A stretch of 64,000 nucleotides of DNA from Acidobacteriota bacterium (GTDB lineage Bacteria; Acidobacteriota; UBA6911): assembly GCA_963664705.1 (NCBI GenBank), contig OY761556.1:6176001-6240000 (forward strand), read 5' to 3'. The position numbers and the translations under genes were made by a program. The notes beneath the pieces are model-generated. The model searched no databases. It was not told the origin of the DNA and worked only from the letters and a program-made list of their open reading frames with translations. This document shows, in pieces, positions 39,759-54,632 of this stretch. Each line of letters begins with the position of its first letter. Position 1 is the first letter of the stretch.

Positions 39759-39807
39759 CTGAAATCTGGAATCCGGAATCTGAAATCCGAAATCTGGAGT
39801 CTGAAAT
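39759..39807. repeat. Heptamer tandem array, 7 units (CTGRAAT)
   Basis: ctgaaat ctggaat ccggaat ctgaaat ccgaaat ctggagt ctgaaat between convergent genes. Confidence 0.85.
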
Positions 39808-40889
39808 CAAAACACCAGATACATTCCGTCGGCAATAATCCTTTTTTGTCCTGCCGCGTATACAGCCACCGCTTCCGCTACCTGAATCGGGTTGCCTTTG
39901 GCGTACACGATGTCCTGATGCACGACATTTTCCGGCTTAATAAATGAGCGCACACCAATGGCTCCACCAAGGTGGTCGGATCTCCCGTATGCCCAGTGAA
40001 AGCCGGCTTTTTCATCTTCCAGTACATTTCCGGTCACAATCGCATCGTCGTTGCATCCGAACGCCACTTCGGCAATGTTGGCGCGGATCGGGTCTATCGC
40101 GAAATAGTCGCGCAGGCGCTGACTTTGCTCAGCTTCCCCGGAGATTTCGACAATTCTGTTTCGTTCCACGCGAAGCACGACCAGTCCGCCATCGATGACA
40201 GCCGGCAGTTCGCCCGATGTCCGGGAATATTCGCCTGCCTTTTCGCCTTCGTAGGGAACGATGAATGTTTCTCCGGAGGGGAGGTTGATGATGCGGTCCC
40301 CTTTTTTGAAGCGTGGCAGGAACCCGTCGTCCACCTCGCATTTGCGAAACCGCAGATCGAATCGGCAGGAATGTCCTGTGGAAAAACGAACATCAAGGCT
40401 TTCGGCGCCTTCCAGCAGGTCCGCGAGAATGCCGCAGCGGCGGGCAACCTCCCGATAATCGGCCGCCAGGGCGCTTTTTTCCATGCGTCTTTCCAATCCC
40501 GGCATAGATGCGGCCCGGAAGTCTTCCTTCTTTCTGCAGAATCCATCGAGAGCGGCCGTCGCGGAGAATTCGGTGAGAAATGCGGCCAGGGTGCATTGGC
40601 CCAGAGCATCCTCGAGACGAACTTCCGCGCCGGATTGCATTCCCTTTGCCGGAAGATCCGCTCCGTTGGCGCCGGTTGCCGGATAGATGAGCAGCGGTTT
40701 GGTTGTAAACCCAAGCCTGCGGCCGAGAGATTCGAAGGCATCGCACCATTCCTGCGCCAGGGCCCGGCGGTCCTGCCATTGCGGATTATCTGCCACGGCG
40801 CCATGCGGAATATCACAAGCGACCAGTACTGTTTCCCCTGCCTGAGGGTCGAAGACGTTTACAAGAAGATCCTGCAGTTTGAATGCCAC
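39807..40889 (-). CDS. M29/aminopeptidase-T-like metallopeptidase
   Basis: NLPSGE, NIAEVAFGCN, LEDEK.GFHWAYG, HQD; GTG 40889 after GGAGG. Confidence 0.75.
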   Translation of the reverse strand: MAFKLQDLLVNVFDPQAGETVLVACDIPHGAVADNPQWQDRRALAQEWCDAFESLGRRLGFTTKPLLIYPATGANGADLPAKGMQSGAEVRLEDALGQCTLAAFLTEFSATAALDGFCRKKEDFRAASMPGLERRMEKSALAADYREVARRCGILADLLEGAESLDVRFSTGHSCRFDLRFRKCEVDDGFLPRFKKGDRIINLPSGETFIVPYEGEKAGEYSRTSGELPAVIDGGLVVLRVERNRIVEISGEAEQSQRLRDYFAIDPIRANIAEVAFGCNDDAIVTGNVLEDEKAGFHWAYGRSDHLGGAIGVRSFIKPENVVHQDIVYAKGNPIQVAEAVAVYAAGQKRIIADGMYLVF

Positions 40890-41038
40890 GGCGAGCCTCC
40901 CATTTTTGCTCTCGAGGCCGGAAGATTTCGGCATCGAGGCTCGTTGCTGTAGTTAGGATAGCACCGGGCAATCCTCTTTCGCCAAATTCGTGGCATAAGA
41001 AGCGGCGCAAAATTCGGGAATTTCAGCCAGCGCGATTC

Positions 41039-42244
41039 TCACCTGGCTGCGAATTCCAGCGCTATTCTTTTCCAGATTGTACGGATTCCGCGCAGCGGAA
41101 ATTCCCACCAGTGGTCAATACCCCAGATCCATTGCATATATCGGGGAAAACCCAGAAAGGCGGGCCGGAAGCGGCGGCGGAAGGCGGATCGTTTGTACAG
41201 GCCATAGCGAACCCGAAACAGGTCGCGCGTAGTCAGGTTGGAGACTCCTCGCGTACGGACCTTGATCCAGTCGCGCTCCATCGATGCAACCGGAAGGCTC
41301 CGGAGCTGCTTCAATACGAGACCGGGAATCGGGGCGTCGACCAGTTCATTCAGATAGGGAAGCATATATTGCAGGACAAGGGTGAGGTTTCTCTTGCGAG
41401 CCTGTGCCAGCAACCGGGCCCAGTCAAAGTCGGGAGTCGTGGCAATCACCGCGGAGGCATCCGCAACCCAGCGCATGGGGGCCACCGCATTCCATTCCAT
41501 TGCGTGGGAGCAGATGTGCAGCAATTGATCCGACGGCGACAAAGCGCGGGACTCTTCGCCACCGCAGATAATTGGAATCGATCCTTCCCACAGATCGACG
41601 TCAGCCTCAGGTCCCAGGCACTCCTGAAATACGTGCCAATGAAGATCCAGCTTGATATCCGTTTCTTCCCGGGCCAGGTTGCAGGCTTTTACCGCGAGCA
41701 GGTATTCCGGAGTGATTTTCTGCGGGCAATCTTTCTCGGGCTTCCATCCTGATTGGATTAAACGCTGAAGTGCCTCAATGGCCTTATTCGTGGGAATCAG
41801 CACGTCGATATCTGCCATTGGCCTCAAGCCGAGGTCTCTGTAATAAAGATGTGCCAGGGCTGCTCCTTTGAGAATCAAGGTGGGGATTCCCATTTCGTGG
41901 AAGGAGCGGAGGACCGCGGAAAGTCGGTGCAGCGCCAGTTGATTCTGATACCAGGCCCTGCGATAGATTCCTTTGAACCGACCAAGCAGATCGGTTTCCA
42001 CTCCGATGCTTTTCAGGTTGCGATAGAGCAGCGGGATCAGCCTGAAGGAACCGTAATCGAGATGATCTATATCCGCCAGGGATCGCCATTTTTCCCAGGC
42101 TTCGATCCCGTGTGGCACAGGCAGGAGAGCTGCGCGCAGCATCCATTGCTGTTCAGGCGTCGGCCATGCGTAGCCGGATTCTCCGTCAATGGCGAAAGGC
42201 GGCGCGCATATCTCAAATGGACGGTTCATTTTTTTTATCTTCAT
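41039..42244 (-). CDS. Nucleotidyltransferase (NTP_transf_5-like)
   Basis: LILKGAALA..YY...LRPMADIDVLI, DLHW, LLHICSH, RWVAD. Confidence 0.85.
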   Translation of the reverse strand: MKIKKMNRPFEICAPPFAIDGESGYAWPTPEQQWMLRAALLPVPHGIEAWEKWRSLADIDHLDYGSFRLIPLLYRNLKSIGVETDLLGRFKGIYRRAWYQNQLALHRLSAVLRSFHEMGIPTLILKGAALAHLYYRDLGLRPMADIDVLIPTNKAIEALQRLIQSGWKPEKDCPQKITPEYLLAVKACNLAREETDIKLDLHWHVFQECLGPEADVDLWEGSIPIICGGEESRALSPSDQLLHICSHAMEWNAVAPMRWVADASAVIATTPDFDWARLLAQARKRNLTLVLQYMLPYLNELVDAPIPGLVLKQLRSLPVASMERDWIKVRTRGVSNLTTRDLFRVRYGLYKRSAFRRRFRPAFLGFPRYMQWIWGIDHWWEFPLRGIRTIWKRIALEFAAR

Positions 42245-42944
42245 TGAAGCGTTGGACGGCTGCCTGCCGACGCCGGTCCAAAGCTGTTTTTACAATGCGT
42301 ACAAAGTCGACCTGCGAAGAACGTTCGACAATTGTCGTGTTGCGTCCATGTACGCGACGCCGATAGACGATTTCCGGCAACATTTGAGCCTGGAGTCCCG
42401 CTTCCATCGATTTGGCAAACCAATCGACAAAATCCCCCACTCGCCAGGTGTCGTCAAAAAGCCCCACTTTGAAAAACGCTTCGCGCCGGATCAGCATGGC
42501 GCTCTTCATATATGCAGGCTGGGGTTTATCCGGGATCAATAGCCGGCCGGCAACCTCCATCGGCATGTCCGGACTCCGAAAAAAGAGGCTGTGCCCAAAG
42601 ACCATATCAATGCCGGGCCGAGACTGTAGAATTGCTGCCTGCTTTTGCAGTTTGTCGGGTTGCCAGATGTCGTCGGCATCAAGGAATGCAAGATAGTTGC
42701 CCTGCGATAACTGGATGCCCCGGTTTTGCGTTGCCGAAATGCCCCTGTGAGGCTGGCAGTCGCAATAAATGGAGCGGCCGAAGGAACCTGCCACCGCTGC
42801 CGTATCATCGGTAGATCCGTCATCCACGACAATCACCTCAAAGGGCGGCAGAGACTGCTGTAGAACACTGTTTATCGCCTCTGACAGGTAGTCGGCAGTA
42901 TTGTAGGCTGGAATGATGACGCTGATCCGCATATCGTCAGGCAT
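42213..42944 (-). CDS. GT2 glycosyltransferase
   Basis: SVIIPAYN, VVDDGSTD, FLDADD. Confidence 0.9.
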   Translation of the reverse strand: MPDDMRISVIIPAYNTADYLSEAINSVLQQSLPPFEVIVVDDGSTDDTAAVAGSFGRSIYCDCQPHRGISATQNRGIQLSQGNYLAFLDADDIWQPDKLQKQAAILQSRPGIDMVFGHSLFFRSPDMPMEVAGRLLIPDKPQPAYMKSAMLIRREAFFKVGLFDDTWRVGDFVDWFAKSMEAGLQAQMLPEIVYRRRVHGRNTTIVERSSQVDFVRIVKTALDRRRQAAVQRFNEDKKNEPSI

Positions 42945-44034: not shown

Positions 44035-44508
44035 TCAGGACTGCTTGGGGTTCGAGTCCGACCCTGCAGCGGAGTTCGGGATGTTGGGCCAGCCGGTTTC
44101 ATCCACTTCGTGAATCGGGTCCACCAGCAAAAGCTCCTGCATGTCCGTATATTTATTCAATACCGGAGCGGTAAACACCCTGCGTGGCTGATGCTCCGAA
44201 TTTCCGGAAGCTTTTTCCTCCGCAGAGACCGCAGGGTCCGGCACGATCAGGTTCTCGGCAATGATGCGTTGAATGAATTCCGCAACCGCCGTTTCAATAT
44301 CCTTCGCGGAGCCGTCGTAGATGCGGGACAGATGTAATAAAATTTCGCCTGCTGTGAATCCACTCTCCAGCATTGACCAGATTTCCGCGCCCAGCGTGTC
44401 AATGCTGTAATAGTTGCCGCTGGCGAGGTTGACGATAACAATCTCATCGTCAAAATTTTCCAGGATGACATCGGGCTTGTTGGTTCGATATCGGTCACTC
44501 TCGTTCAT
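44035..44508 (-). CDS. PqqD/RRE-family protein with a C-terminal leader/core-like extension
   Basis: Three strands (ENFDDEIVIVNLASGNYYSI) and three helices (GAEIWSML...FIQRIIAENLI), linker, then FTAPVLNKYTDMQELLLVDPIHEVDETGWP; ATG 44508 after GGAGG. Confidence 0.85.
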   Translation of the reverse strand: MNESDRYRTNKPDVILENFDDEIVIVNLASGNYYSIDTLGAEIWSMLESGFTAGEILLHLSRIYDGSAKDIETAVAEFIQRIIAENLIVPDPAVSAEEKASGNSEHQPRRVFTAPVLNKYTDMQELLLVDPIHEVDETGWPNIPNSAAGSDSNPKQS

Positions 44509-44745: not shown

Positions 44746-45453
44746 TCAAGTCTTCTCTGTCTGCTGCTTTCTGTGTATTGATGCCCGGATCAGGCGGAAC
44801 ATATCATTCCACAGTGCAAGCGCCTGGTTGGAGTCATTCTTTGCGTGCAGTCTTCGATAGAGCAGAACGTCCCGTAAAACCATCCTTTGAATGCCCAGAT
44901 CCTGCGCTCGAAAGAACCAGTCCGAGTCATTTCCGACCTTGTACGAGGGATCAAAAAGGCCGACCGTACTCAAGGTTGTACGGCGAACCATGAGCGCACT
45001 GGGCAAAAAGGAGGGTGCCGGCTGATGCAGCAGTTCCGGCTTAAGACCGGCCGGAATCGGCGTTCCGCTTTCAAGAATCATCTTCATGTACGAAACCACA
45101 TAGCCGACCTGTGGATTAGTTCGCAAATAGTGGGCCTGGAGACTAAGTTTACCGGGGGCCCACCAGTCGTCTGCATCGAGGAATGCGAGAAACTCGCCGC
45201 GTGACTGTTCTATGCCTGCATTTTTTGCTGCGCCATGCCCCTGGTTGACCTGGTGAAAATAGCGCACGCCGGGCCATTTCCGGGCGATTCGGGCGGTGGA
45301 ATCTGTGGAGCCATCATCCATGACGATGACTTCTATCGGGCGATAATCCTGTTCAAAGACGCTGGCCAGCGCATTGGGGAGAAAATCCTCTCCGTTGTAT
45401 ACGGGAATAATGATGCTGACCAGGTCTCTTTCGTACTCTGCCGTAATCATCAA
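44746..45453 (-). CDS. GT2 glycosyltransferase
   Basis: SIIIPVYN, DDGSTD, FLDADD, DSDW. Confidence 0.9.
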   Translation of the reverse strand: MMITAEYERDLVSIIIPVYNGEDFLPNALASVFEQDYRPIEVIVMDDGSTDSTARIARKWPGVRYFHQVNQGHGAAKNAGIEQSRGEFLAFLDADDWWAPGKLSLQAHYLRTNPQVGYVVSYMKMILESGTPIPAGLKPELLHQPAPSFLPSALMVRRTTLSTVGLFDPSYKVGNDSDWFFRAQDLGIQRMVLRDVLLYRRLHAKNDSNQALALWNDMFRLIRASIHRKQQTEKT

Positions 45454-46250
45454 TGCTTTAGCCTCTCGGGTTCTGCATCGACCGTTTCACAAGCCTCCAG
45501 GCGAGGCAGGGACGAGGCCGCCCCCCCGCCGGCGGCTCTCCGCCTGTCGAGCGACTGCTTCAGCATTTGCACAAGGAAGTGATTGTCCACCTTGCGGTTA
45601 TTCGTCAGATTTCCTTCATGACGACGATAATGCAGCACCAAACCGCGATGGATGTGGATATGGGTTCCGAGTTCGCGGGCGCGCATGAACCAGTCCCAGT
45701 CATCGCAATGCAATAGTTGCGTATTTAGCGGCCCCAATTGGCGAAACAGGGATTTTCGGATCAGGGTGCTCCCATTGCCCATAATCAGCTGCGGGCTCGC
45801 TGGCAACTGGAAAGGCAAATGGTCCGGATCCATCCCCGGATCGGGCCATAGAAGCGCATATCCCATGACCACCTGGATTGTGGGATCTTCTTTAACCGGG
45901 GCCAGTTGCAGCTCGATGGAATTTTCGGGCCAGACGTCATCGGCATCCAGCAGGCTTATCCATTCCGAGGTGGCTTTCGCAATGCCTGAATTGCGTGCTG
46001 CCGGAGCACCCTGGCGTTCCTGCCGGTAATATTGGACTGACGAGCCGAATTGCATGGCGATCCGCGGCGTGCTGTCGGTGGATCCATCATCGACGATGAT
46101 GATTTCGCGCGGACGAATCGTTTGGCGAAGAGCGCTGGAAATCGCCTCGTGCAGGTACTTCTCCCCGTTGTATACCGGGATGATCACGCTAACGGATTCA
46201 TCGGGCTTGGCATCGGATGGTTTCATGGCTCTCTGTTGTTGCCGGGTCAT
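45450..46250 (-). CDS. GT2 glycosyltransferase
   Basis: SVIIPVYN, DDGSTD, LLDADD, DWDW; start uncertain (46250 or 46226). Confidence 0.88.
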   Translation of the reverse strand: MTRQQQRAMKPSDAKPDESVSVIIPVYNGEKYLHEAISSALRQTIRPREIIIVDDGSTDSTPRIAMQFGSSVQYYRQERQGAPAARNSGIAKATSEWISLLDADDVWPENSIELQLAPVKEDPTIQVVMGYALLWPDPGMDPDHLPFQLPASPQLIMGNGSTLIRKSLFRQLGPLNTQLLHCDDWDWFMRARELGTHIHIHRGLVLHYRRHEGNLTNNRKVDNHFLVQMLKQSLDRRRAAGGGAASSLPRLEACETVDAEPERLKH

Positions 46251-46715
46251 AAGCCTGCAAACCCGCAGCCTGGAGATTTTACAACGAAGGCGCACGAAAA
46301 AATCGGCAAATCCGTGGCAGACTTGCGGTTCCTTTTCGCTCCTGATTTCACGGATTGTGGGGAGATTCTAAGGGCAGGAAACAACCCCGGGTTGCCGGTG
46401 CGTTCAGGTTGCCTAAAAATGTAACGATTTTTGGTGAGATATGCTAGATTATGCGGTCGAGGAAGAAAGCGAATAATTCGTGTTGCCCGGAAATACGGGA
46501 GCGCTCCCGCGGCTGATTCGGCAGTTCTGTCAGATCCGCGAGGAGGACGATGACGCGTACCTCAAAAGCCCTTATCATCGCACAATGAGTGATGATTGAT
46601 TCGCGATACTGAACCGTTCGTGATCAGTATTGGACGTTCTATATTGCAGATGTGGGGGGCACATCAGCGAACCGGTTTGCCGAGCTGTGTTGGGAAAACT
46701 TGGAGAGGACCTCTG

Positions 46716-47747
46716 ATGACTTATTATCTTGCGACCAAAGAAAGCATCGTCAATTGGATTAAGGGATTGTCTTCCGACAACCGGACCTACTTCCCGCAAA
46801 GGCACGGGGAAAAGAGCTACCGGTTTGCCCAAGTCCAATCCAATTCCGATATACAGTTTGAGCAATACACTCCAACTGTTGTGCCTCCGGTAAAATTTCT
46901 TGTCCCGGCAAGGGACGAGCTCCTGCAGTTCAAGAAAGGTGCGGACGGCAAAAGCGAGGTGAATGCCTCATTGGATACCTCCTTCCGGATTCTGGCAGGC
47001 GTACGGCCCTGCGATCTCAAGGGGATCCAGCTCATGGACCTCTTCTTCAAAGACGGCGTGCCTGATGCGTATTACCTCGCCCGTCGGGAGAATACGGCCA
47101 TCATCGGATACTCATGCTCGGCCGCCTGCGACGAGCGCGCATTCTGCGGAGCGGTTGAATCGCTCGACTACAGCGAAGGCGCGGATGTCTTTGTTACTTC
47201 CCAGGCGGGCGGCGACCTCCTGGTGGAAGTGAAAACGGATCTTGGGAAAAAGCTGGCCTCCGGGGCGGGATGGAAAGCGTGCGACAGCGCGCCGGCTCCA
47301 AAGAAGAACGCCCAGCCGTTCGGCCGCACATTTGCTGCGAGCGTGCCCGAGATTACCGGCATTATCGATAAAAACACGAACAGCCCGATTTGGGAAAAGC
47401 ATGTGACCCGCTGTTTCTCCTGCGGTACCTGCAACCTGGTTTGCCCCACGTGCTATTGCTTCGACGTCGCCGACGATCTGAACTTGGACGTAACAACAGG
47501 GAATCGCACAAGAACCTGGGACGGCTGTATGCTTCCGTCATTTGCCGTGGTAACCGGAGGGCATAATTTCCGTCCGGAAGCCGCCGCGCGGCAGCGTCAC
47601 CGAGTCAGCCGCAAGTTCGATTATTTGACCAAGAAATATGGACGCGGCTCGGTTTGCGTGGGATGCGGGCGGTGTGGCCGCCAGTGCACGTCCCACATAG
47701 ACATTTACGATATCGTGTCAGACCTGATCAAAGAAGGAGGCCGATAA
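46716..47747 (+). CDS. hydB: Group 3b [NiFe] hydrogenase beta (Fe-S) subunit
   Basis: GVRPCD, CFSCGTCNLVCPTCYCF, CVGCGRCGRQC. Confidence 0.88.
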   Translation: MTYYLATKESIVNWIKGLSSDNRTYFPQRHGEKSYRFAQVQSNSDIQFEQYTPTVVPPVKFLVPARDELLQFKKGADGKSEVNASLDTSFRILAGVRPCDLKGIQLMDLFFKDGVPDAYYLARRENTAIIGYSCSAACDERAFCGAVESLDYSEGADVFVTSQAGGDLLVEVKTDLGKKLASGAGWKACDSAPAPKKNAQPFGRTFAASVPEITGIIDKNTNSPIWEKHVTRCFSCGTCNLVCPTCYCFDVADDLNLDVTTGNRTRTWDGCMLPSFAVVTGGHNFRPEAAARQRHRVSRKFDYLTKKYGRGSVCVGCGRCGRQCTSHIDIYDIVSDLIKEGGR

Positions 47748-48595
47748 TGAGTACCGTTGCATCCTCATATGCGGAACTAGCCAAGGACAGTTTCCTGCCG
47801 CAGCGGGGCAAGATCGTCGAAATCATCGACATGACCGCAAAAGACAGGTATTTCCGCCTTGAGCTGGAAAAGCCGCTGGGCCACCGTCCGGGTCAGTTTG
47901 TCATGGTTTCAATCCTGGGAGTCGGCGAAGCTCCGATATCCGTCAGTTGCGGGCCCCGAAACGATAACGTGCTGGAAATGGTGATCCGCCGCCTGGGTCG
48001 GCTGACCGAGGTGATTCATGCGCTGAAAGTAGGGGACGAGATGGGAATTCGCGGCCCCTTCGGTTCCGGATTCGATCTCAACGACTTCTACGGAAAAGAT
48101 GTCCTGTTCGTTGCCGGCGGCCTCGGTCTGGTGCCGCTTCGATCCCTGATCACGCCCGTCGTGGCTGAAGCCAAGCGTTGCGGTACGATTACCCTGATTT
48201 CCGGATGCCGGAATCCCGCGGAAGAACTCTATCGGGATCAGCTCAAGGCATGGACGGATGCCGGCGTCAACGTGATCCGGCTCGTGGATGGCACTGAAAA
48301 CATGCCGTGGGAGTTTGGCGTAGGCCTTGTTACGGAACCGATTCCGAAACTGAAACTTGATCCGAAAAATACCGTTGCCGCCCTGTGCGGGCCGCCTGTC
48401 ATGTACAAATTCGTCATTGCCGCGCTGTTGAGCAAGAACCTGCCTCAGGATTGCATCTTCGTCGATCTTGAACGGCGTATGAAATGCGGCGTTGGCAAAT
48501 GTGGGCACTGCCAGATCAACCATGTATATTGCTGTCAGGAGGGACCGGTCTTTCGGTTTTCCAGTCTGGCAGGATTGCCGGAGGCGCTTCGATGA
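47747..48595 (+). CDS. hydG: Group 3b hydrogenase gamma (FAD/NAD(P), 2Fe-2S) subunit
   Basis: PGQF, GEAPIS, RGPFG, AGGLGLVPLR, CGPPVM, ERRMKCGVGKCGHC..C. Confidence 0.9.
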   Translation: MSTVASSYAELAKDSFLPQRGKIVEIIDMTAKDRYFRLELEKPLGHRPGQFVMVSILGVGEAPISVSCGPRNDNVLEMVIRRLGRLTEVIHALKVGDEMGIRGPFGSGFDLNDFYGKDVLFVAGGLGLVPLRSLITPVVAEAKRCGTITLISGCRNPAEELYRDQLKAWTDAGVNVIRLVDGTENMPWEFGVGLVTEPIPKLKLDPKNTVAALCGPPVMYKFVIAALLSKNLPQDCIFVDLERRMKCGVGKCGHCQINHVYCCQEGPVFRFSSLAGLPEALR

Positions 48596-49368
48596 AACCC
48601 AAGGTAGCATTTTTCGATTTCGCCAGTTGCGAAGGATGCCAGCTGGCCATTCTGAATTGCGAGGAGATCCTCCTCGACATACTCGGCCTCATTGACCTGG
48701 TGGAATTCCGCGAGGCTATCTCTGAAACCGCACCGAAGTACGACATCGCCTTCGTGGAAGGAAGTATTCATCGCGACGAGGATATCGAAAGAATCCAGAA
48801 TCTGCGGTCCCGAACCCGCTACCTTGTAGCGCTGGGCGCGTGCGCGTGCAATGGAAATGTGCAGGCGCGCTCCAATTTTGTGGCTCCCGCCGTGAATTAC
48901 GAAGCGATCTACGGCGAAAAAGCCCGCAACCTGGTTCAGGTCGATCCGGACTACTGGCAGTTGTGGGCCCATACCCGTGTGCGGCCGCTGGACAAGATCG
49001 TCAAAGTGGATGCATATCTGCGCGGCTGCCCCGTGGTGCCGGAGGAATTTCTCCACCTCGTGAAATCGCTCCTTCAGGGAACCATGCCGACAGTGACCGC
49101 GAATGCGGTTTGCGTGGATTGCAAGAAGAACGAGAACGAGTGCGTGTATGAACGGGGCAAAACCTGCATGGGACCCGTGACATGGGGCGGTTGCAACAGC
49201 ATCTGCGTCAATCAGGGATATGTCTGCGACGGCTGTCGCGGATCTCTCCCACACGCCAATGTGGAAGCCCATATCGCACTGATGCGGGAACACAACATCG
49301 ACGACAAAGATATCCGAAGCCGATACCGGCTTTTCCTGGGTGCCGAACCTATTGGTAGGGGAGTCTGA
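48592..49368 (+). CDS. hydD: Group 3b hydrogenase delta (small) subunit
   Basis: SCEGCQ, VEGS, LGACA, GCP, VCVDC, CMGPVT.GGC, CDGCRG. Confidence 0.9.
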   Translation: MKPKVAFFDFASCEGCQLAILNCEEILLDILGLIDLVEFREAISETAPKYDIAFVEGSIHRDEDIERIQNLRSRTRYLVALGACACNGNVQARSNFVAPAVNYEAIYGEKARNLVQVDPDYWQLWAHTRVRPLDKIVKVDAYLRGCPVVPEEFLHLVKSLLQGTMPTVTANAVCVDCKKNENECVYERGKTCMGPVTWGGCNSICVNQGYVCDGCRGSLPHANVEAHIALMREHNIDDKDIRSRYRLFLGAEPIGRGV

Positions 49369-49371
49369 AAA

Positions 49372-50676
49372 ATGGATTTGAAAGCCAAAACATATACGAT
49401 TGATGTCAAGCACGTTACCCGTGTCGAGGGGCATGGACGCATTGTAGTCAATACAAAGGAAGGCGCCGTCCAGGAAGTGAAGCTTGTAATCACTGAAGCC
49501 AACCGCTTCTTCGAGAACTTCGTAAAGGGGATGCAGCCGGCGGAGGTGCCCTGGATCGTCAGCCGGATCTGCGGCATTTGCTGCGTGGGTCATCAGTTGA
49601 CCGCGACAAAGGCCGTGGAAGCCGCCCTGGGCATTCAGATCAGCCCGCAGACCGCCCTGCTTCGCAAACTTCTCACGGAGTCCCAGTTTCTGCAGAGCCA
49701 TGTACTGCATGTTTACTTCCTGGCTGTCCCGGACTTCCTGGGCGTGAAAAGCGTTCTGCCGCTGGCAAAGACGCACCCGGAGGTCGTGACGCGTGCGCTC
49801 CGGCTCAAAAAGCTGGCCAATGACTATACAACCATGTTTGGCGGACGCACGCTGCATCCGATGGCCAACACGCTCAAAGGTTTCCGCAAGCTCCCGGACC
49901 TGGACGCGGTTGCCGCCCTCAGGAAACGGCTGCTGGACGCGATTCCGGATATCGAGGAAACCGTGCGTGTCGCCAAGACTCTCCAGATTCCTCCATATGA
50001 ACGCGAAACCGAATACGTATCATTGAAGCATCCGGATGAATATGCGCTGTACGATGGCGACATCTACAGTTCCGACACGAAGTCTGCGGTGCCGGTGGAC
50101 AAATACCGGGAAGTCACCAACGAATTCACGGTCGCGCATTCGACCACCAAGTGGTCAAAATGGCATCGGGATTCCTATTTTGCCGGTGCGCTGGCTCGTG
50201 TGAATAACAACTTCGACCAGTTGATGCCCCAGGCCCAGCAGGTCGCCCATGATCTCGGATTGAAAGTGCCTTCCTACAATCCGTACATGAACAATGTGGC
50301 CCAGGTTGTGGAAGTTGTGCACTGCGCCTACAACAGCGTCCGCATGTTGGACGAACTGCTGGGCGGCGGGATCAAGCAGGAAGATATTTCCTTCCCGGTC
50401 AAAGCCGGCCGCGGCGTGGGTTCCTGCGAAGTTCCACGCGGGATCCTGTTCCACGAATATGCCTTTGACGCGGATGGCCGTTGCATCGATGCCAACGCCA
50501 TCATTCCGACAAGCCAGAATATCAACAATGTCGAGCAGGATATGAAGGCGTTTGTGCCTCAGATGCTGCCGAGCATGTCCAAAGAGGAGCTCACGCTTCA
50601 CATGGAGATGCTGCTGCGGGCGTACGATCCGTGCATTTCCTGCTCGGTTCACATGCTGGATGTTGATTTTGTCTGA
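49372..50676 (+). CDS. hydA: Group 3b [NiFe] hydrogenase large (alpha) subunit
   Basis: TRVEGHG, L1 RICGIC, EVPRG, L2 YDPCISCSVH plus a short cleavable tail. Confidence 0.95.
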   Translation: MDLKAKTYTIDVKHVTRVEGHGRIVVNTKEGAVQEVKLVITEANRFFENFVKGMQPAEVPWIVSRICGICCVGHQLTATKAVEAALGIQISPQTALLRKLLTESQFLQSHVLHVYFLAVPDFLGVKSVLPLAKTHPEVVTRALRLKKLANDYTTMFGGRTLHPMANTLKGFRKLPDLDAVAALRKRLLDAIPDIEETVRVAKTLQIPPYERETEYVSLKHPDEYALYDGDIYSSDTKSAVPVDKYREVTNEFTVAHSTTKWSKWHRDSYFAGALARVNNNFDQLMPQAQQVAHDLGLKVPSYNPYMNNVAQVVEVVHCAYNSVRMLDELLGGGIKQEDISFPVKAGRGVGSCEVPRGILFHEYAFDADGRCIDANAIIPTSQNINNVEQDMKAFVPQMLPSMSKEELTLHMEMLLRAYDPCISCSVHMLDVDFV

Positions 50677-51163
50677 ACCTGCGACGCCGACTGCCATGTT
50701 GGAGTGGCAGATCGTGGGGATCGGGACCCGTCTTAATAGCGACGACGAGATTGGTCTTGCGCTGGTCCGCGCTCTAACGGAAGAAGCGGAGTGGGCGGAA
50801 AAGTGCGTTCTGTGGGAAGGCGCCGACGCTGCGACGGTTACCTCGTCCCTGCTGGAATGGAGCCGCGCGACTGTCCTGGTGGATGCTGCCGATATGCGTC
50901 TTGCGCCGGGCGAGTACCGATTCTTTCCTGACCGGGATGCTTCCGTCACGCTGAAAGACAGTTCGGTTTCTACTCATGGCCTGGGTTTGCCGGAAGGATT
51001 GCAGTTGGCCAGGAGTCTTGGGTTCGACCAGCCGATCTACGTTTTTGCAGTTCAGCCATTTGACCTTTCTCCAAGACAGGGAATGACATCAGAAATGACC
51101 GCCCTGTTTCCTGCGCTGCTTTCGGCCTTGAGAGCAGCCTGTGTTCGGGTGTCGCAGGGATAG
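50660..51163 (+). CDS. Hydrogenase maturation protease
   Basis: GIGT.L.SDDEIG, LVDAA, STHG; start uncertain (50660, 50669 or 50696). Confidence 0.85.
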   Translation: MLILSEPATPTAMLEWQIVGIGTRLNSDDEIGLALVRALTEEAEWAEKCVLWEGADAATVTSSLLEWSRATVLVDAADMRLAPGEYRFFPDRDASVTLKDSSVSTHGLGLPEGLQLARSLGFDQPIYVFAVQPFDLSPRQGMTSEMTALFPALLSALRAACVRVSQG

Positions 51164-53298: not shown

Positions 53299-53700
53299 AT
53301 GCAGACGAATGAACATGTATTGGAATTCCGCGTTTACATGGAAGATACCGATGCGCAAGGCATCGTGTACTATGCCAATTACCTCCGCTTTTTCGAGCGG
53401 GGACGCAGCGAAATGATCGAATCGCTCGGAATACCCATGACAACGGCAATCGACCCGGATTGCAGGCTGGTGATCTACGAAGCCCGCGTGAAGTTCCGGA
53501 GGCCGGCTTTTCTTGGGGACCGGATCCAGGTGGTGACCTCGATGCTGCGCTCCTCGGAATACCGGGTCACCTTCCGGCAGCAGGTGAAGCGACTCGGAGA
53601 AGAGGATGCGCTGGTCAGCGGGGAAATTGATCTCGTTGCCATCGACCAGACCGGAGCCCTCAAGGAGCTGCCCGCATTTTTTCAACCCGAAAAGAAATAG
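53299..53700 (+). CDS. YbgC/FadM-family acyl-CoA thioesterase
   Basis: RVYMEDTDAQGIVYYANYLRFFERGRSE. Confidence 0.9.
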   Translation: MQTNEHVLEFRVYMEDTDAQGIVYYANYLRFFERGRSEMIESLGIPMTTAIDPDCRLVIYEARVKFRRPAFLGDRIQVVTSMLRSSEYRVTFRQQVKRLGEEDALVSGEIDLVAIDQTGALKELPAFFQPEKK

Positions 53701-54579
53701 AGCACTCCGCGGCAAATTCCAGGAAAGAATGCTTGATGCCGGACTTTTTGCGGCAGTACACATAAAACCTGACTTGACCGAATTAGTAACCCCTCTAACC
53801 GCGAAGACCGCGAAGACCGCAAAGAAAATATTTGCACCGCTGATAAACGGACTCCAGCAATTCTGGCGCTGTATGGATTGCCACCGCTGAATCGACAATA
53901 TGACGCGCAATTTTTTCCTGTCCATCACACTATCTCATTGCCCAGCAGCAAAATGAGACCCAAAATCTTTGCGGTCTTCGCGGTTCAAATATAAAAACTA
54001 ATCAACGCCATTTATCAGTATTTTTTGTATGGAACCAAGTTTTTCCCCAAAAGCCGGCCAAGTCCGGAGGAGCTGCCCGCATTTTTTCAACCCGAAAAGA
54101 AATAGAGCACTCCACGGCAAATTCCAGGAAAGAATGCTTGATGCCGGACTTTTTGCGGCAGTACACATAAAACCTGGCTTGACCGAATTAGTAACCCCTC
54201 TAACCGCGAAGACCTCGAAGACCGCAAAGAAAATATTTGCACCGCTGATAAACGGACTCCAGCAATTCTGGCGCTGTATGGATTGCCACCGCTGAATCGA
54301 CAATATGACGCGCAATTTTTTTCGTCCGTCACACTATCTCATTGCCCAGCAGCAAAATGAGACCCAAAATCTTTGCGGTCTTTGCGGTCTTCGCGGTTCA
54401 AATATAAAAACTAATCAACGCCATTTATCAGCATTTTTTGTATGGAACCAAGCTTTTCCCCAAAAGCCGGCCAAGTCCGGAGGAGCTGCCCGCATTTTTT
54501 CAACCCGAAAAGAAATAGAGCATTCCACGGCAGATTCCAGGAAAGAATGCTTGATGCCGGACTTTTTGCGGCAGTACAC
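53663..54579. repeat. Tandem direct repeat, about 2.2 copies (405 bp, 413 bp, 99 bp)
   Basis: AGGAGCTGCCCGCATTTTTTCAACCCGAAAAGAAATAG starts at 53663, 54068 and 54481; the copies differ by scattered substitutions and a 9-bp unit. Confidence 0.95.
53797..53985. mobile_element. MITE/REP-like element with 9-mer-based terminal inverted repeats (copy 1; copy 2 at 54202-54398)
   Basis: AACCGCGAAG(ACCGCGAAG)ACCGCAAAGA ... TCTTTGCGGTCTTCGCGGTT; no transposase in the window. Confidence 0.45.
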
Positions 54580-54632
54580 TTAAAGACAGCTGCGCACACA
54601 AATCTATTTCCATCTGACAAGAGGACGGAACA

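Follow-up and report, generated by a model that had tools for sequence, protein, structure and literature searches.

RREs are understood to bind a separate precursor, and two groups of described systems come closest to the locus studied here. One comprises the phosphorylated lasso peptides, namely paeninodin (PadeK), ThcoK, pseudomycoidin (PsmK/PsmN) and Bsf (BsfK/BsfB1), as described in PMC9266682 and PMC10368454. In pseudomycoidin, a hexose on the phosphate is reported as shown, with attachment via phosphoserine (PMC9266682), and BsfB1 is described to enhance phosphorylation by BsfK (PMC10368454). The other group comprises the LPP clusters of Bacillota, made up of LppA, LppB, LppK, LppS, LppD and LppN (PMC13381572). 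The accounts given in PMC9266682, PMC13381572 and PMC10368454 leave PsmN, LppN and BsfN, respectively, without a shown in vitro function. Furthermore, PF05402 proteins that are longer than a discrete RRE and have no second Pfam domain are reported as an unexplained class (21%; PMC12710340). An RRE fused to its own leader does not appear to be described in PMC12710340, the supplementary data of which could list members of the family presented here.

In the window, by which we mean the whole analysed stretch of 64,000 nucleotides from an Acidobacteriota bacterium, we found a gene in which a lasso-type RRE, a linker and a leader-like tail are joined (Table 1). Its 157-amino-acid product falls into the over-long PF05402 class of PMC12710340 by definition. 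Like the LPP clusters, the family to which this protein belongs combines an RRE with a YxxP-type leader, an HprK-like kinase and an NTP transferase and has no lasso cyclase, a candidate MsbA-like exporter is present in part of the loci, the surroundings are rich in glycosyltransferases and the distribution is patchy. In addition, D130 is located 18 residues from the anchor, as is the LppA acceptor from the leader Tyr. Unlike in the LPP clusters, RRE and leader are one protein, and a separate YxxPxVLxHQxIxFETxxS precursor, a recurring peptidase and a Ser in the place of the acceptor are all missing. Moreover, the core is near-invariant here whereas it is hypervariable in LPP, GT2s belong to the constant genes of the cassette, and the family ranges over many phyla instead of Bacillota. 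With the phosphorylated lasso systems the family shares a lasso-type RRE (the closest structure being TbiB1), a His-Lys-Asp-Asp kinase and a PF14907-type transferase. In contrast to these systems, the genome of the window has no B2 peptidase, the loci have no recurring cyclase, a conserved Ser is missing and the precursor is not a peptide of its own. The NCBIfam HprK-related kinase A/B systems (TIGR04352, TIGR04355) and lasso PqqD models (NF033536, NF033530) gave weak profile matches, all below cut-off. In its working the family resembles the LPP and phosphorylated-lasso modules, but it qualifies for neither group.

The fused family is real and widespread, and it seems to be undescribed so far. 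In the literature outside most subscription journals, searches turned up no account of an RRE that is fused to its own leader, and none of the searchable papers contains the tail motifs. The family explains part of the over-long PqqD-only proteins in RRE surveys, and a ligand carried in cis explains why precursor-hunting tools see orphan clusters.

Table 1. Features of the RRE-tail gene and its cassette (positions in the window)
Feature	Position	Strand	Remarks
RRE-linker-tail gene	44035..44508	-	157 aa; ATG at 44508; GGAGG ~10 nt upstream
Lasso-type RRE/PqqD domain, residues 1-90	44239..44508	-	PF05402 and fold comparison
Ala74 (position of LppB Asp70)	44287..44289	-	Asp in Tyr-tail subfamily, small residue in Phe-tail subfamily
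Variable linker, residues 91-111	44176..44238	-	13% pairwise identity
RRE anchor F112-x-x-P115-x-L117	44158..44175	-	cis docking predicted
Y120-x-D122-M123-x-x-L126-L127 leader part	44128..44151	-	predicted kinase contact
D130-P131-I-H133-E-V-D-E-T-G-W140-P141, conserved core-like stretch	44086..44121	-	D130 putative modification site; H133 alternative in subfamily A
Ser-rich end, residues 142-157, non-conserved	44038..44085	-	alignment
HprK-like kinase, 362 aa	42937..44025	-	His166/Lys187/Asp204/Asp205 intact; start 9 nt after RRE stop
Short GT2 glycosyltransferase	42213..42944	-	overlaps kinase end
NTP_transf_5 (PF14907) nucleotidyltransferase	41039..42244	-	profile match
Short GT2 glycosyltransferase, upstream, same subfamily	44746..45453	-	profile match
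Short GT2 glycosyltransferase, upstream, same subfamily	45450..46250	-	start uncertain; frame open to 46295

The RRE-tail protein and its two subfamilies

The original prediction placed an RRE of ~90 amino acids, a linker and a leader-like tail in a single ORF, and this was borne out. A PF05402 PqqD match scoring above the cut-off (E 1.9e-11) spans residues 22-88, and the tail FTAPVLNKYTDMQELLLVDPIHEVDETGWP occupies residues 112-141 (nt 44086-44175). The AlphaFold2 model and the PF05402 match indicate that the three-strand, three-helix RRE/PqqD fold is present, and the nearest solved relatives by sequence and fold are TbiB1 (5V1U/5V1V), PbaB1 (9X90), TfuB1 (6JX3) and LppB (9X8Z). Between residue 88 and the aromatic anchor, the median distance is 26 residues. 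Behind the tail, the 16-residue end NSAAGSDSNPKQS finishes at 44038; this copy has four Ser after GWP, and its last residue is Ser. With the NCBIfam lasso PqqD models NF033536 and NF033530 the RRE scored 52.5 bits against a cut-off of 80 and 24 against 70, and the adjacent kinase scored 42.8 and 35.5 bits against a cut-off of 200 with TIGR04352 and TIGR04355. Since all NCBIfam matches lie far under the cut-off, RRE and kinase family are covered by no curated model. Promoter and terminator scans at the locus gave chance level only, and its GC content is unremarkable.

Of 920 candidates from a full-length query, 838 proved to be relatives. When 118 of the best 120 of these were aligned, with two matches longer than 200 amino acids (P0042 and P0047) left out, P115, D122, L126, P131, H133, V135, G139, W140 and P141 were invariant, and D130 was Asp in 117 sequences and Glu in one. 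As full-length matches are biased towards the tail, a query with the RRE only was run as an unbiased check. It yielded 23 matches among 30 candidates, of which 22 are PqqD proteins including the query, and the tail was present in all 22 (21/21 without the query). A profile of the 33-residue tail alone found 2908 representatives of 50%-identity clusters (E<=0.001), and D130 was Asp in each of the best 150. On these comparisons, the tail motif is far from chance, and at least 2908 clusters, in subfamily A alone, appear to carry the RRE ligand in cis.

Among 320 sequences of this subfamily A, the mean pairwise identity was 39% for the RRE, 13% for the linker and 57% for residues 112-121. It reached 86% for residues 122-141, a value that is inflated because the set was partly selected by the motif, and fell to 16% beyond GWP. 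Conservation of the proposed tail thus holds for residues 112-141 and does not extend to the Ser-rich end. A set of 510 sequences (320 from subfamily A and 190 from subfamily B) was filtered for the D-x-DP-W pattern, so that the invariance of D122, D130 and P131 in this set is by construction; three proteins failed the filter, with D130E, D122E and a W-to-L exchange, respectively. The RRE was complete in 107 of the top 150 tail-profile matches (of 2908), and the other 43 were N-terminally short or partial, two of them with a chimeric look. Stand-alone tails were not adopted, as these 43 proteins look short, partial or chimeric. In whole genomes, all tail matches (14 and 7) lie in frames of at least 144 amino acids with an RRE.

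A relative is encoded at 515 of the 552 pattern matches in GTDB genomes. The best 80 GTDB loci come from Bacteroidota, Chloroflexota, Cyanobacteria, Nitrospirota, Acidobacteriota, Bacillota and others, while no relative was found in the viral contigs searched and none of the solved peptides searched matches the tail. In the Atlas annotation the relatives bear generic PqqD names only, and a plasmid-borne cyanobacterial copy is called "PqqD family protein" by NCBI.

From a weak genome match (L096) we obtained 1040 further proteins among 1060 candidates, which constitute subfamily B. The top 120 of these 1040 all end in a YxxPxLNIYRDMGDLLALDPPxPGLxxxPW-like sequence without His, and the B-type end DPPxPGLxxxPW is found at loci L096/L097 and L102-L181. 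The equivalent of D130 is Asp in all of the best 120 (of 1040). Both tails have the aromatic-x-x-P-x-L motif, Y, D-M, L-L, L-D-P and the distal Trp in common, and their comparison revealed no common Ser or Thr. The B genes sit among the same kinds of neighbours as the A genes. A metagenome scan for subfamily B with a single sequence gave no match.

Several tails are deviant (P0122, P0124, L093-L095, L209, L210, L212): in some, YxDWP replaces xxGWP, the aromatic anchor can be lost while the DPIH...W part stays, and one B member is without Trp. In P0152 and P0253, two single sequences that are probably assembly chimeras, the tail is joined to unrelated N-terminal domains, which we take to be a HAD-like domain and another one.

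Predicted docking of the tail and its kinase partner

Structure prediction agreed with the initial proposal that the protein carries an FxxPxL leader motif in cis. In the AlphaFold2 model, pLDDT is 95 over residues 111-120 with a strand at 117-120, the linker is looser (pLDDT 77, 64) and residues 121-157 are low. Cleft occupancy was read from model confidence, secondary structure and listed contacts, and the RRE fold matches the TbiB1-leader complexes. The tail is hence predicted to be a leader-like FxxPxL motif, fused in cis, that occupies the RRE cleft.

A residue switch in the RRE points the same way. In the crystal structure of LppB with LppA, a hydrogen bond is described between the leader Tyr-16 and Asp70, which precedes Phe74 by four residues, and LppB D70A weakens leader binding (PMC13381572). 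The counterpart of Asp70 is residue 74, four before Phe78. This residue is Asp in 183 of the 190 Tyr-tail proteins versus 2 of the 306 Phe-tail proteins, 256 of which have Ala, Ser or Gly instead. In subfamily A, 2 of the 5 Tyr cases have Asp at this position, and so do two free RREs beside Tyr-leader peptides. Judged from the alignment, the switch is the exact pair that would be expected if each RRE binds its own tail, although it represents essentially one, or a few, evolutionary events and not many independent ones.

Next to the RRE-tail gene lies the HprK-like kinase gene. Among 401 genomes of the window's phylum, the tail and the kinase subfamily were found in the same 14, on the same contigs, and the other 387 have neither. 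In a second phylum sample, the kinase was present in all five tail-bearing genomes, and 72 of the 80 GTDB loci have it as well. The eight kinase-less GTDB loci include one with a truncated kinase, five that end within ~1.2 kb and two with the kinase on another contig. PDB sequence searches with the kinase returned classic HPr kinases only. His166, Lys187, Asp204/205 and Lys250 are kept in A and B kinases, and a His-Lys-Asp-Asp motif is reported as the catalytic set of lasso kinases (PMC9266682). The kinases of the B loci form one clade (16 of 102, support 0.999), which essentially reflects one event and not many independent ones. In B-type metagenome loci with at least 400 bp downstream, the kinase was seen in 20 of 62. 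Several B contigs of 10-14 kb are without a kinase, but the cluster runs off their ends, and the two whole genomes in which a B tail occurs both carry one; for these reasons, a kinase-independent subfamily B was not adopted.

The modelled complex of the RRE-tail protein and the kinase scored 0.77, compared to 0.40 for the best of three controls. Of 157 solved complexes, 116 attain the mark applied to this score, as do 2 of 215 mismatched pairs; this calibration is only rough here because alignments and ligands of our own were used. The runs share at least 43% of contacts, and pLDDT of the partners is at least 70. At the confident contacts, kinase residues 289-321 and the P-loop (182-183) meet the RRE sheet and tail residues 120, 122, 123, 126 and 127, and kinase residue 295 contacts RRE residue 33 and tail residue 120 alike. 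Tail residues 128-141 are not confidently placed in either the monomer or the complex model. The complex model supports RRE-kinase binding but does not show it. Together, co-occurrence and modelling support the adjacent kinase as the partner of the tail protein. Presentation of the tail to the kinase, as first suggested, therefore stands as far as this partnership is concerned (14/401 genomes; 0.77 versus 0.40), but not with the Ser-rich end as the target. With chaperone and candidate substrate in one small protein beside one kinase, the family provides a two-component test of RRE-to-kinase peptide handover.

Candidate acceptor residue and proposed mechanism

We searched the loci for a separate precursor and for processing enzymes. 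The [YWF]xxPx[LIVF] motif occurs in 39 of 2010 short ORFs in 81 loci; four of these are internal starts of the tail, and the remaining motif ORFs near the RRE form no family. The B2 leader peptidase PF13471 had no match in the genome of the window (98% complete). No recurring peptidase, and no SpI-like leader peptidase, was detected among the annotated recurring neighbour clusters or the window cassette genes, nor was a macrolactam cyclase in the window cassette or the recurring clusters of the 80 A loci. An M29-family peptidase encoded right after the cassette (39807-40934, minus strand) was rejected as leader peptidase because it has no homologue in the 80 other loci.

A genome that also holds two fused cassettes contains free peptides (L214:5087-8962, G487:C15). 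Six tandem ORFs of 30-32 residues share a YxxPxL leader and have short Ser-bearing cores. They face genes for a distant HprK-like kinase and a discrete RRE of 88 residues as well as an NTP-transferase-like gene, and neither a cyclase nor a peptidase was seen next to the peptides. At tail positions 6-13, which lie beyond the anchor, the peptide leaders match the tail better than nearly all shuffled sequences (only 0-10 of 5000 shuffles per peptide did as well); an rSAM-type precursor does not (1698 of 5000 shuffles), so that Y120-D125 looks like a kinase-type leader signature. The L214 system looks like an unfused cousin of the fused family, and possibly it is another undescribed linear phosphopeptide system. 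The RRE tree is too weak to place its free RRE (support 0.25).

The distance from the anchor suggests a candidate for the modified residue. Ser3 of LppA is reported to lie 18 residues from the leader Tyr (PMC13381572) and Ser3 of BsfA 19 residues (PMC10368454); here, F112 plus 18 residues is D130. The L214 peptides have a Ser, the putative acceptor, at 20-22 from the anchor, where subfamily A has H133 and subfamily B has Met/Thr/Val. The acceptor zone reads D130-P-I-H133-E in A and D-P-P-x-P in B, none of the 320 A sequences has a Ser 18-23 residues after the anchor, and Asp130 is the sole polar residue of this zone that is common to both subfamilies. By analogy, the register argument for Asp130 is suggestive only, because about 8 of the 21 positions with index 8-28 are near-invariant and an invariant residue at 18-19 could thus be due to chance. 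A literature search by title or abstract start returned no HprK-like kinase acting on Asp, and we know of none. If the acceptor is Asp or His, the chemistry of the kinase would be new. Kinases of this type are described to move phosphate onto phosphate, an anionic oxygen (PMC9266682), while LppK is reported to reject even S3T and S3Y (PMC13381572).

Our preferred reading, to which we assign a probability of roughly 0.5 by analogy with the described systems, is an uncleaved RRE-precursor fusion that would be modified at or near Asp130 and glycosylated through phosphate. Very probably, to judge from the predicted structure, F112-x-x-P115-x-L117 would fill the RRE pockets and residues 117-120 would add a strand beside the third RRE strand. 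The RRE sheet face together with Y120, D122, M123, L126 and L127 would then probably dock on the C-terminal helices and the P-loop of the kinase. The tail itself may well be the kinase substrate without being cut off, the odds being about even. The likeliest acceptor would be Asp130, giving an acyl-phosphate, an assignment that we regard as tentative. In analogy to pseudomycoidin, NTP_transf_5 and GT2/GT4 enzymes might finally build and tailor a sugar chain on the phosphate. It is likely that the Asp130-Pro-Ile-His stretch, and not the Ser-rich end, is delivered to the kinase. As an uncut but modified tail, the protein would be a fixed primer or carrier and not the source of a released variable peptide. 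The family further offers a route to the activity of the PF14907 transferases.

A more speculative and rather improbable extension is that the RRE-tail protein serves as a recyclable, ACP-like carrier for glycan assembly, a repurposed RiPP precursor. An aspartyl-phosphate on Asp130 would receive an oligosaccharide from NTP_transf_5 and GT2/GT4, and the labile mixed anhydride would hand on the phospho-glycan without proteolysis, again an improbable course. If true, thousands of lineages would possess a glycan pathway that is primed by a protein, and there would be a hint as to the reason for finding lasso and LPP kinase modules in capsule loci.

The confident contacts of the complex model, confined to the RRE sheet and residues 120-127, would also suit an RRE that is permanently loaded with its own leader and acts as a scaffold or activating subunit of the kinase. 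The tail would then stay unmodified and the kinase would act on the hydroxyl of a sugar or glycolipid, a possibility that we consider real though not probable. GT2s may in this case also be bound via the conserved Trp, and Asp130 may mimic a phosphoserine. No Ser or Thr is common to both subfamilies, the neighbour genes are those of glycan tailoring, the catalytic Asp pair is kept as would be fitting for a hydroxyl acceptor, and the kinase-GT2 fusions in 8 of 80 loci suit a sugar substrate equally well. Against a mere scaffold, residues 130-141 are more conserved than the RRE and yet subfamily-specific in step with the kinase clade, an invariant carboxylate is located at the register of known acceptors, and every characterised relative modifies the leader-bearing peptide itself.

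If the tail is the substrate, it is unlikely that the acceptor is Thr121 or His133 of subfamily A, or that the GT2s glycosylate Trp140 directly. A hydroxyl acceptor does exist in subfamily A, since position 121 is Thr or Ser in 300 of 320 sequences, but Asn/Asp in another 16, which would resemble a helix cap, and Arg in 184 of 190 B sequences speak against it. His133 is present in 320 of 320 A sequences and lines up with the Ser that the free peptides of L214 carry, but its position is taken by Met/Thr/Val/Ile in B. The Trp is common to both subfamilies, and Trp N-glycosylation is reported for NAI-112 (PMC11912497), but a few members (P0354, L210) miss it. The original prediction had the kinase phosphorylate a C-terminal Ser in the Ser-rich end, as PadeK and ThcoK are described to do (PMC9266682). 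The copy in the window, with its four Ser beyond GWP and its terminal Ser, would fit this paeninodin-type reaction, which nevertheless has become very improbable: a C-terminal Ser was found in only 3 of 80 loci, 11 of 150 representatives, 22 of 320 sequences in subfamily A and 8 of 190 in subfamily B; moreover, 125 of the 320 A sequences lack Ser in the part that starts with D130, and 32 lack both Ser and Thr there. The end after GWP is 3 to 20 residues long (80 loci), and given its 16% identity and the rarity of a C-terminal Ser, the Ser-rich end is no family feature. Hardly more credible is an autoinhibitory plug, displaced by a separate precursor that is encoded elsewhere. Short genes can be missed, and the L214 genome with its two fused cassettes also has a free-precursor system with a similar leader, but no short ORF recurs in the 81 loci and the conservation extends far past what plugging the cleft would need.

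Gene neighbourhood and glycan context

In the window, the genes run in the order GT2, GT2, RRE, HprK-like kinase, GT2 and NTP_transf_5, and the kinase, GT2 and NTP_transf_5 genes overlap successively. The three GT2s are 35-36% alike over their length and nearer to each other than to any other GT2 of the genome. Among the 80 GTDB loci, a GT2 is present in 69, NTP_transf_5 in 55 and an MsbA-sized ABC transporter in 19; the cassette of the window has no such transporter. Kinase-GT2 fusions occur in 8 of the 80. Further neighbours encode GT4, GT10 and GT-C-like proteins, epimerases, PIG-L, deacetylases, hexapeptide transferases, acyl- and methyltransferases, radical SAM proteins and AsnB-type amidotransferases. 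In some B loci, AsnB-like genes are found, mostly with a full amidotransferase domain. One B-type cluster (L140:9005-10846) encodes a 614-amino-acid protein with only weak GATase and Asn_synthase matches, which could be a divergent amidotransferase or cyclase-like enzyme.

Genes for AGE-family epimerase-like proteins recur in 10 of the 80 A loci and in 13 of 85 further loci (L028, L039, L044, L049, L108, L119 and others), and DUF6817/HD genes recur inside clusters. A complete cassette is located on a mobilizable plasmid of Crinalium epipsammum PCC 9333 (L216, NC_019735.1:5896-17248), where it comprises two NTP transferases, an FkbM methyltransferase and an ABC transporter and adjoins a group II intron. 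The second PqqD protein of the window's own genome (L081, G000:C1:1391806-1395015) is a discrete RRE. Beside it are a precursor of 55 amino acids that contains Cys and a YxxPxI motif, a weak NTP_transf_5-like match and a gene of the radical SAM/SPASM type, which does not reach the cut-off of the SynChlorMet radical SAM models. Elsewhere in the window, four or five genes on the plus strand (46596-51163) resemble what we take to be a NiFe hydrogenase or sulfhydrogenase operon with a maturation protease. Finally, at ~53600-54600, a stretch is present in about three near-identical copies, visible as repeated translations in overlapping ORFs.
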